Assembly (NCBI GenBank): GCA_964016885.1
Contig: OZ024744.1
Span: 86,800,001 to 86,864,000 of the forward strand
Source of the DNA: Eledone cirrhosa
Lineage: Eukaryota
Direction of reading: 5' to 3'
DNA length: 64,000 nucleotides
The notes beneath the pieces were generated by a model. The model saw nothing but the letters and a program-made list of their open reading frames with translations. It made no database searches and had not been told where the DNA came from. A program made the translations under genes and the position numbers. Positions 11,936-14,564 of the stretch are shown piece by piece. Each line of letters opens with the position of its first letter. Within the stretch, counting starts at the first letter, position 1.

Positions 11936-12607
11936 GACAGTGCTGACGTATGTGACTTCTCGCTGAAATTATATTTATATATATATATATATATACATAC
12001 ACACACACACACACATATATATATATATATATATATATATATTGAGTGTATGTTGGTCATTTTACCTTATCTCATTCCATTAACTGTTTGGCACCCCCAC
12101 CACGTGAAAGGGTGGTAGGATTGATGCCAACCCACACACATTCATTCTTCTAAAGACATCAGCAGTAGAACTAAAGCTGACCTGCCAGCTGACCCCCTAA
12201 CACCAATAAACACAAGGAGGAAATCAGCTGTACTTAACAAAAACAACCACAACAGTCGTGCCTCGGAAAAAAATTTCTATAGAATTTTGACTGAGGAATG
12301 TTCTCACAACTGATCAATGGGAGGTGAGAGTTTCCTATGATGCCAAAATTCGTTTGTTCGAATTCATATGATTCCAGTTCCTCAGAGAAATAACAACCCA
12401 ACCAGGAGCTGGACATATCGGAGTATTGACGGAGTAAGACACTTTAACAACATGTGTATCTGTCTCTACCACACCAATTTGAACTGATTATATATACAGT
12501 AGATGAACAGCTCACGTAGGGTTTGCTCGACGGTTCCAGTTGTAGTTTCAAAAGTAATCCGGAGAAAATAGAAGGATTTAAATGGATACAGTTCAGTAAA
12601 AGGAATG

Positions 12608-12726
12608 TATTGACACGTGTTTCAATAACAGTTATATAACCTGAAAACAGCTGCTATCTACAAAGTATTAATTATGCAGAGACTCAATATTTCAATGTTA
12701 TTTTCAACTATCATTTCATCAGAATA
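12608..12726 (-). ncRNA. Hammerhead ribozyme with extended helix II
   Basis: tatt CTGATGA aat gatagtt...aactgtt att GAAAC ACGT GTC aata. About 92 nt lie between CTGATGA and GAAA. Confidence 0.72.
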
Positions 12727-14079
12727 ATCTCATTGAGAACTTGTTTGGTTTTTATAGAGAATATTAAGAGGGGGGAGTGAAATTAGAAGAATAGTTAAGG
12801 GAGTGTATAGGAATTTTTTGATAGCAGTGGGTAATTAGATTCCCATCTGTTGTTTTGACATTTTTATAGAATACATTATTTGGCGTTGGTTATTTTTATA
12901 GAAGGATTAGAGATAGTAAAGATATGCATGGTTGGTTTTGTGTTTGCACTTAATTAACATACAGACTTAAATTTTTCTTTCAAGTGTGTGTATCCGTTCG
13001 CCCACACATAGATATATGTGTATATATACTTATTTTTAAAAAAAACATACACATTCACACACATACATATATGCACACCTCTACAAATACATACACTCAC
13101 ATACACATACTAACATGCTCATACTTACATACATATATACATGTACATATATATACATATACATATACATATATATATGTACCCACATACGCATTCATGT
13201 ATATACACTTTCATACTCTACTTATCTTCATATACACACATATATAGACACACACATATATACATACATACTCCTGTCTATGTGTATATATATATATATA
13301 TATATATGTATAAATACACATATACATGAATACACATACATTTAATTATAAACATCAAATATATATATATACACTCACTCACTTATTTACTTATTTATAT
13401 ACATTTTCACCTATATACATACATATAGTCGCTTTTAGACACATTCATTATAGCATATTCGCACCTATTCTCACCAGCATATTTATCCATTATTAGTGTG
13501 ATAATTTAAGGTTATTAATAGTACATATATATGTTGAGAAGTGATTGTTTTTATATTTTTCTAACTATATTGAGGATTTGTATAGTTGGGAGGATGTCCC
13601 TCGTTTATGTAATATTCAGCTTGTAGTGGGAAAAAGGGTTTTAGTTCGGTGACGGCAGAATAATGTTCGTGCGATTCTGTTATTAAGCAGTTTCTTCTTG
13701 TGTGTGATTATGTAATAAATCTCAAGATTACATAATTTTCAGAAATTTTGACTCCTGGAAAAGCTTTGGGTTTTAGCTAATTTCTCCCATTTTAGGGTAA
13801 ACTTTTGATCGCTATCCCTGAGTGTCCAAGCTTTTCCTGCTAAAGTTGTTACATTTCTGTGGCTCTGGTGTTTTATTGAGTAAGAATGCCTATATAATCG
13901 AGATTTAAACGATGTTGCTGTTGATCCCACGTAATACCACTCGTTGCCTCCGGATTCAATGGTACACTTATAGATGATATTTTTTTCAAGGCAGTTATTG
14001 CCGAGGGGGCAATATTCTCTATAAAAACCAAACAAGTTCTCAATGAGATTATTCTGATGAAATGATAGTTGAAAATAAC

Positions 14080-14269
14080 TGTTTCTACTTTTGGCACAAG
14101 GCCAGTAATTATCCCAGTGCATTACTGGTACTTTATTTTATCGACCCCGTAAGGATGAAAGGCAAAGTTAACCTCGGCGGGATTTGAACTCAGATCATAA
14201 AGGGGCGTAACTCTATACGTGAAAGCATGGCGTCCGACCCTCTACCGATACTGCCAATCGACCACCCTC
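14080..14269 (-). mobile_element. tRNA-derived SINE with 18-bp TSD
   Basis: ATGATAGTTGAAAATAAC at 14062-14079 and 14270-14287. Confidence 0.95.
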
Positions 14270-14564
14270 ATGATAGTTGAAAATAACATTGAAATATTGA
14301 GTGTCTGCATAATTAATACTTTGTAGATAGCAGCTGTATTCAGGTTATATAACTGTTATTGAAACACGTGTCAATAAATTCCTTTTACTGAACTGTATCC
14401 ATTTAAATCCTTCTATATATATATATATATATATATATTTATATATATATATATATATATATATATATATATATATATATATATATATATATATATATAT
14501 ATATATATATATATATATATATATATAAATATATATATATATATATATAGTTTTAATATAGATG

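Follow-up and report, generated by a model that had tools for sequence, protein, structure and literature searches.

The window analysed here is a 64,000-nt stretch of Eledone cirrhosa DNA (GenBank assembly GCA_964016885.1, contig OZ024744.1), and within it, at 12497-14416, lies what we take to be the remains of a Hydra-type Penelope-like element (PLE), which is built as follows.

12497-14416, minus strand: whole insertion, a 5'-truncated putative Hydra-type PLE whose 5' end carries an inverted partial copy, lying between (TA)n tracts; the RT part is absent
12497-12567, minus strand: 3' terminal segment of 71 nt, present in the sense copy only and followed by (TA)4 at 12489-12496
12568-12765, minus strand: part of the 3' pLTR that forms the sense arm of the inverted repeat and matches the twin arm at 195 of 198 positions
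12766-13615, minus strand: 3' UTR of about 850 nt, with a TA/CA microsatellite block at about 13000-13430 and no second copy in the window
13616-14010, minus strand: remnant of the C-terminal GIY-YIG endonuclease (its last 130 codons), cut at the inversion junction
14011-14416, plus strand: inverted 5' arm (the twin), followed by (TA)n at 14417

The endonuclease remnant, which contains one internal stop (13739-13741), matched Pfam PF01541 at an E-value of 1e-4 (23.0 bits, cut-off 22.6). Word-indexed protein searches found no longer relatives, whereas an exhaustive search did find them, giving 1450 relatives at E ≤ 0.001. Among the best 150 of these 1450, CxCX5CP was present in 65, CxxCxxE in 89 and N..CxH in 69, and none had a CxxC between the GIY and YIG strands; in the three full-length relatives (37-39% identity), DK[TS] occurred in all three and RWK in two. 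The marks of the Hydra clade, as defined in section 11 of PMC8557442, are CxCX5C, CxxC and CxH beside the conserved E and N, RWK and DKT, with CCHH absent. In the remnant itself the stretch from the GIY to the YIG strand contains no pair of Cys; CRH is present, and the first Cys of CxxC falls at the internal stop. Our copy is cut at the last Cys of the CxCX5C linker, a motif that is present in the neighbouring element at 11165-11749, where a likeness to Hydra-1_Obim was seen by eye.

The layout of the insertion is likewise that of the Hydra clade, namely a C-terminal GIY-YIG endonuclease, a 3' UTR and, about 900 nt downstream of the endonuclease stop and on the ORF strand, a hammerhead motif. 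(TA)n lies at both ends, as in Hydra-clade insertions (14417, and (TA)4 at 12489-12496), and the end of the 12497-12567 segment looks by eye like the Hydra-1_Crog consensus end. The start of the twin coincides with the cut in the ORF (14010/14011), and (TA)n forms its end; after removal of a SINE and one target-site duplication (TSD), the twin differs from the sense arm at 3 of 198 positions. In PMC8557442, truncation at the 5' end with an inverted copy there, and (TA)n as the target, are described as typical of PLEs. Since the RT is absent from this copy, clade membership rests on the endonuclease and the anatomy; from these and from the motifs of its relatives, the element is probably a Hydra-type PLE. 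The copy is dead, having no RT and a stop in its endonuclease.

Other PLE remains are scattered through the window. A Hydra-type endonuclease fragment with a CxCX5C linker lies at 10940-11900 (minus strand), with a hammerhead at 11000 whose helix II measures 11 nt. A second PLE insertion of the same build occupies 14549-18808; its inverted arms are 99% identical over 511 nt, and it carries an endonuclease remnant near 16283-16516 (plus) and a degenerate hammerhead at 14609 (minus)/18748 (plus). Related hammerhead motifs at 7127 (minus), 20965 (minus) and 15921 (plus)/15743 (minus) have a helix II of 30-31 nt and a ATATATAT-type helix III; around the 7127, 20965 and 15921 motifs the flanks are conserved and helix II is strongly different, and 15728-15936 is one of the foldbacks in the window. 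Three copies of another PLE-type hammerhead with an 18-nt helix II, one of them without G12, lie at 28993 (minus), 20736 (minus) and 30233 (plus), with ORF remnants at 25088-25938 and 29209-30011. A 120-nt repeat (97%) is found at 12366-12485 and 19017-19136, where it leads into a hammerhead motif at 19014 (minus); the other copy stops just short of the hammerhead at 12485, where the studied element ends. Further repeats include three LINE copies (2764-4766, 48505-51273 and 53636-57101), related at 72-78% identity and decayed, in which endonuclease and RT frames remain; an additional RT frame at 61789-63960 that matches Pfam RVT_1 (E 1.5e-25); at 36826-38970, transposase-like frames and, after them, a tandem array of 170-nt units spaced 65/65/40 nt; and, at 46436-47195, a 283-nt perfect inverted repeat flanking a 194-nt microsatellite-rich spacer.

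The original prediction described a minus-strand core, CTGATGA...GAAAC ACGT GTC, holding about 92 nt of helix II closed by a defined stem. A descriptor scan recovered exactly this arrangement, and the strands of the closing stem are indeed AATGATAGTT/AACTGTTATT, forming 10 bp, or 11 bp when the adjoining G-U pair is counted. The parts of the motif are the following.

12607-12727, minus strand (ORF sense): type I hammerhead motif
12727-12723, minus strand: helix I 5' strand, TTATT
12722-12716, minus strand: core CUGAUGA (CTGATGA in DNA), with C3 at 12722
12715-12624, minus strand: helix II, 92 nt, predicted to be a single rod of 33 bp with an 11-bp closing stem whose first pair is A-U
12623-12612, minus strand: GAA, the self-complementary ACACGUGU (helix III, dimer-type) and C17
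12623-12621, minus strand: GAA
12620-12613, minus strand: ACACGTGT
12612, minus strand: C17 of the GUC triplet, after which cleavage is predicted
12611-12607, minus strand: helix I 3' strand, AATAC

Both this motif and its twin carry the CUGANGA/GAAA core and an NUH cleavage site (as CUGAUGA, GAAA and GUC). All three helices can be drawn around the core, helix I being open-ended, with 4 bp in helix I (5 bp in the twin) and 11 bp in helix II; helix III has 2 bp in a monomer and 8 bp in a dimer formed through the palindromic ACACGUGU. Two features depart from the usual form: the pair 10.1-11.1 is A-U rather than G10.1-C11.1, and the 92 nt of helix II lie outside the stem of 3-7 bp and loop of 3-10 nt published for minimal PLE hammerheads. 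An alternative short helix II (22 nt, with GAAA at 12693) was rejected, as it leaves helix I with only 2 bp and is absent from the predicted fold.

To place this length among the other hammerheads of the window, we hand-curated 14 hammerhead-like motifs from the list of CTGANGA sites, counting inverted duplicates once and accepting several with weak helices; their helix II lengths were 11, 12, 13, 18, 18, 18, 21, 26, 30, 30, 31, 74, 92 and 115 nt. The longest served as a comparator.

30683-30830, plus strand: hammerhead motif (hereafter the 30690 motif) with a rod-like helix II of 115 nt, z -6.2

The comparator is duplicated as a perfect foldback palindrome (30530-30834, centre 30682) with two motif copies, in which the inversion begins at the 5' edge of helix I; the upstream sequence of this copy is lost. 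A possible third long-helix motif, of 74 nt, at 20008-20120 (minus strand) has a 7-bp helix I, is branched and folds at z -1.4, about the 10% chance level, and no PLE context was evident around it (20110).

An extended helix II had been predicted to recur in independent PLE families, and the hammerhead had been announced as unrelated. The length itself and its recurrence hold, given the 115 nt at 30690; independence and unrelatedness to that motif do not follow, as the two inserts align with borderline significance (p from 0.005 to 0.14, depending on the test). That the long helices at 12722 and 30690 were inherited from one ancestral long-helix hammerhead, and are not recurrent, is a serious possibility, although we lean against it. 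The inserts are colinear over about 70 nt with their apices in register, both motifs combine an A/U-rich helix I with an 8-nt palindrome, and the 30690 motif is the best non-self match to the arm among 1086 scanned windows (core included). Several tests of kinship were tried, and their outcomes diverge: against dinucleotide nulls, local alignment gave p-values of 0.036 and 0.046, but other scoring gave 0.083 and, for global alignment, 0.144, while a structure-preserving null gave 0.024 and 0.005 and nhmmer returned an E-value of 5.5. When A+T-matched windows were scored, 9 of 284 did as well, namely three self-matches, the two 30690 arms and four unrelated windows. Moreover, the downstream flanks of the two motifs did not match (p 0.16), whereas those of true relatives reach z 16-19. 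Even between such relatives helix II can be unrecognizable, the inserts at 15921 and 7127 giving p 0.68 though their flanks reach z 16.7; helix II thus diverges fast within families, and the weak similarity between 12722 and 30690 decides nothing.

We then considered how the insert is predicted to fold. The 92-nt sense insert folded at -20.3 kcal/mol (z -2.33, with 6 of 200 shuffles equally stable) and the twin insert without its SINE at -23.4 kcal/mol (z -3.5), whereas the opposite strand reached only -7.8 kcal/mol, an asymmetry to which the G+U-rich composition contributes. In a strand-neutral self-alignment of the rod, G-U oppositions numbered 6-7 and A-C oppositions 1. The fold advantage of the ribozyme strand and the excess of G-U suggest upkeep at the RNA level, at least as modelled. 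A neutral-decay simulation gave p of about 0.02-0.03 for the strand asymmetry, with the mean energy poorly matched, and for three of the four short helices tested it was the opposite strand that folded better. By itself the sense insert has a fold that stands out only moderately (z -2.3), and the whole sense motif is at z -0.5. Helix I was unformed in the unconstrained fold (P about 0), and native helix II formed with P 0.98-1.00 in 10-43 nt of context, compared with P 0.20-0.66 when 100 nt upstream were included. Of the three differences between the arms, two favour pairing in the twin and one is mixed; with neither copy consistently favoured, they are no evidence of selection.

For the predicted dimer, the ACACGUGU self-duplex contributes -10.3 kcal/mol. 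We scored dimers as twice the cost of the active fold plus the helix III duplex, a rough comparison in which tertiary energy is not included, and obtained +2.7 kcal/mol for the sense copy; for the twin the score was -1.9 with the SINE removed and +11.3 with the SINE in place. Six short-helix motifs in the window ranged from +1.0 to +6.4, and the 115-nt motif scored +4.2. Since the sense copy and the SINE-free twin score within or below the short-helix range, the long helix carries no predicted handicap in these equilibrium calculations, which ignore kinetics and protein help.

Another reading is that the long helix II arose by neutral expansion or insertion in a decayed lineage, so that the ribozyme is non-functional and the rod a leftover DNA palindrome. 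PLE copying does make foldback palindromes in this window (30530-30834 and 15728-15936), the copy is dead, and helix II changes fast within a family, as the 15921 and 7127 motifs illustrate. However, both arms have a perfect core, the ratio of G-U to A-C is 7:1 (4:1 at 30690), the fold of the RNA strand is far more stable than that of its complement, and the same shape is found in a second family; we regard this origin as unlikely.

The twin bears on how much helix II can be altered, and its parts are as follows.

14049-14377, plus strand: twin hammerhead motif, antisense to the ORF, with 300 nt between the core halves
14054-14060, plus strand: twin core, with GAA at 14361 and C17 at 14372
14062-14079, plus strand: TSD copy 1, adjoining the core
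14080-14269, minus strand: tRNA-type SINE of 190 nt with A- and B-box-like motifs
14270-14287, plus strand: TSD copy 2, predicted to take over the helix II 3' strand

The 300 nt of the twin insert comprise the original 92, the 190 of the SINE and the 18 of one TSD copy, the two copies (14062-14079 and 14270-14287) being identical over 18 bp. A SINE inside the helix II of the plus-strand twin had been foreseen, and so had the retention of a closing strand beside the core by the TSD; both are borne out, yet the second TSD copy sits directly before the intact rod. BLAST matched the SINE at 25 places in the window, this copy included; 17 of the matches are near full length, and 10 of these 17 have TSD-like repeats of 11-18 bp. 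As expected for a tRNA-derived SINE, it is a short dispersed repeat with A- and B-box-like motifs and variable TSDs; ARAGORN found no tRNA gene. Among the 16 copies with a readable end, 10 are followed by (A/G)TTAT. The copy at 14080-14269 differs from the window majority at 7 of 178 positions, and 6 of the 7 differences are common to other copies, so there is no conflict with an insertion later than that of the PLE. It may resemble the Nin-DC/Deu superfamily, defined by a conserved central Nin domain. Elsewhere in the window the SINE occurs in head-to-tail tandems of 2-3 copies with shared TSD-like spacers and once as a foldback (27769-28339, 39632-40047, 554-920 and 48082-48300).

It had also been suggested that the twin may still fold, with about 300 nt in helix II. 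Nothing is missing from the core nucleotides, the 5-bp helix I or the two closing strands, and the native fold can be drawn if it is forced, but forcing native helix II costs 6.3-8.8 kcal/mol. In all 12 settings of flank and temperature TSD copy 2 paired with the helix II 3' strand (P 0.93-0.94) and the native pairing fell below P 1e-4; TSD copy 1 is itself tied up with the SINE end in a local 8-bp hairpin (P 0.55-0.96 per pair). Besides, the twin runs antisense to the element, and in a read-through transcript of both arms these would pair with each other in a long duplex (-250 kcal/mol). A twin that still folds around 300 nt and can cleave is therefore very unlikely on these models, and the insertion has likely disabled the motif rather than enlarged it.

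We also asked whether the middle 68 nt of helix II could be a spliceosomal intron whose removal leaves a canonical 24-nt helix II. One GT...CAG deletion does leave a 10-bp stem with a 4-nt loop, and the end of the Drosophila virilis Penelope intron abuts a hammerhead (PMC4209133). The donor, GTTGAA, is poor, however; there are three AGs ahead of the acceptor, both splice sites would be buried in the rod, and the 30690 motif yields no such short product (the 20110 motif only a weak one), so that an intron here is highly improbable.

Model searches and shuffling controls address chance. At the gathering score, Rfam gave no matches across the whole window and detected neither hammerhead copy, and the window's short-helix hammerhead motifs likewise fall below that score; in E-value mode, 12400-14600 gave 55 weak matches, with hammerhead among none of them. 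No further copies of the family were found within the window by BLAST, by nhmmer or by a scan with the SINEs cut out. An insert look-alike at about 9540-9790 (minus strand), beside another SINE, was discarded, its p-value being 0.17-0.24 (not significant) after SINE removal, and an exact 21-nt scan of bacterial and archaeal genomes returned two loci with no further similarity, taken as chance. The descriptor scan returned 5 motifs for the real window and, on average, 0.11 for a shuffled one. With helix II of at least 60 nt and at least 10 bp and with 4-bp palindrome arms, there were no matches in 100 dinucleotide-shuffled windows, both strands scanned. When the downstream half was fixed and the 350 nt upstream were shuffled, a helix I of at least 4 bp with a helix II of at least 10 bp arose in 0 of 20000 trials, and under a laxer limit (at least 4 bp for each) in 5 of 20000. 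A chance arrangement of motifs in A+T-rich DNA, which finds some support in looser long-helix matches at 0.1 per shuffled window, has a negligible probability given these null counts at the observed stringency and a position and strand that fit a PLE 3' end.

Our preferred explanation is that the locus probably holds the pLTR hammerhead of a truncated Hydra-type PLE with a predicted 92-nt rod as helix II, that in the active family it likely cleaves slowly as a dimer, and that the twin has likely been inactivated by its SINE. The 92 nt are predicted to close on themselves and to place CUGAUGA beside GAAA, by which closure the catalytic junction would be ordinary. Such a length should be tolerated because only the base of helix II is needed and because PLE hammerheads are described as having no contacts between loop I and loop II. 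Judging from published PLE hammerheads, helix III would be too short in a monomer, and two copies in a tandem precursor would pair through the 8 bp of ACACGUGU; the dimer would then cut after GUC, possibly aided by the element's protein. The published hypothesis for the role of cleavage is the trimming of tandem precursors. As the long helix is in both arms, it was present in the template of the insertion, and since the insertion retains 115 nt past the cut site, that template was uncut there. This is consistent with the experiments on the Poseidon PLE reported in PMC11167929, in which cleavage depended on the element's protein and in vitro insertion did not need cleavage. Being copied is accordingly no proof of activity. 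The SINE would have inserted later, into its usual (A/G)TTAT target, and the TSD would have put a second closing strand before the intact rod, which may then fold without the CUGAUGA half. The lesson from the twin is that a TSD within a stem creates a competitor strand, and the pair of arms offers a ready test of helix II tolerance.

Few ribozyme motifs in animal genomes are as numerous as PLE hammerheads, whose role is unsettled. A wider claim, that host PLEs evolved hammerheads with a selected helix II rod of 70-115 nt that has a job of its own, arose more than once and is hidden from size-limited searches, seems to us doubtful. The job proposed for the rod may be that of a platform for an element protein that switches cleavage, or of a target for RNA editing. 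With helix II limited to about 26 nt, published searches would have missed a class of 70-115 nt rods; if such a class is real, the 'half-core' motifs reported in other PLEs might be long-helix ribozymes, and some elements called ribozyme-free may need re-examination. Hammerhead chemistry is unchanged by the finding, and the locus is a dead copy.

Core halves that lie far apart have a parallel in the discontinuous CLEC2 hammerhead of rodents, reportedly a type III ribozyme spread over hundreds of nucleotides by an insertion in stem I and located in an mRNA 3' UTR; here the motif is of type I and the gap lies in helix II. Type II hammerheads also show that helix II need not have a short closing loop for cleavage, but those of PMC3088659 have an open-ended helix II and a pseudoknot and are mostly bacterial, in contrast to the long closed rod of the present type I motif. 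The Poseidon PLE of Anolis carolinensis resembles our element in its pLTR hammerhead and in inserted DNA that extends past the cut site, and differs from it in clade and in its short helix II (PMC11167929).

The closest comparison is with other PLE hammerheads. Like the minimal ones of PMC4209133, for which a dimer mode was proposed and weakly shown, this motif has a palindromic helix III implying dimers, a short helix I, no evident loop contacts and an opposite-strand partner from a truncated element; its helix III is longer (4+4), and the 'larger than usual' helix II of that paper has 7-8 bp, against the predicted 33-bp rod here. The descriptor of PMC4209133 (stem 3-7 bp, loop 3-10 nt) allows at most 26 nt between the core halves and could not have found a 92-nt motif. 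In PMC13725137, a 'long helix II' means 6-8 bp. With the Hydra-clade hammerheads of PMC8557442 the motif shares type I topology, a place in the 3' pLTR on the ORF strand, a palindromic helix III of 3-4 bp, a variable 10.1-11.1 pair, (TA)n insertion and the occasional inverted 5' copy. Supplementary file S2 of that paper lists a helix III of ACAC/GTGT for Penelope-17_HM and Hydra-1_cRog; helix II measures 12-26 nt in its 26 Hydra rows by our hand count, and the longest in the file for any clade is the 54 nt of PLE-X1_sMoe, a spike-moss element marked as deviating. Searches of openly available full-text literature turned up no natural PLE hammerhead with a helix II of at least 90 nt. The 92-nt helix II, about four times the usual length, thus appears to be a previously unreported size variant; both the ribozyme and the kind of element that carries it are known.
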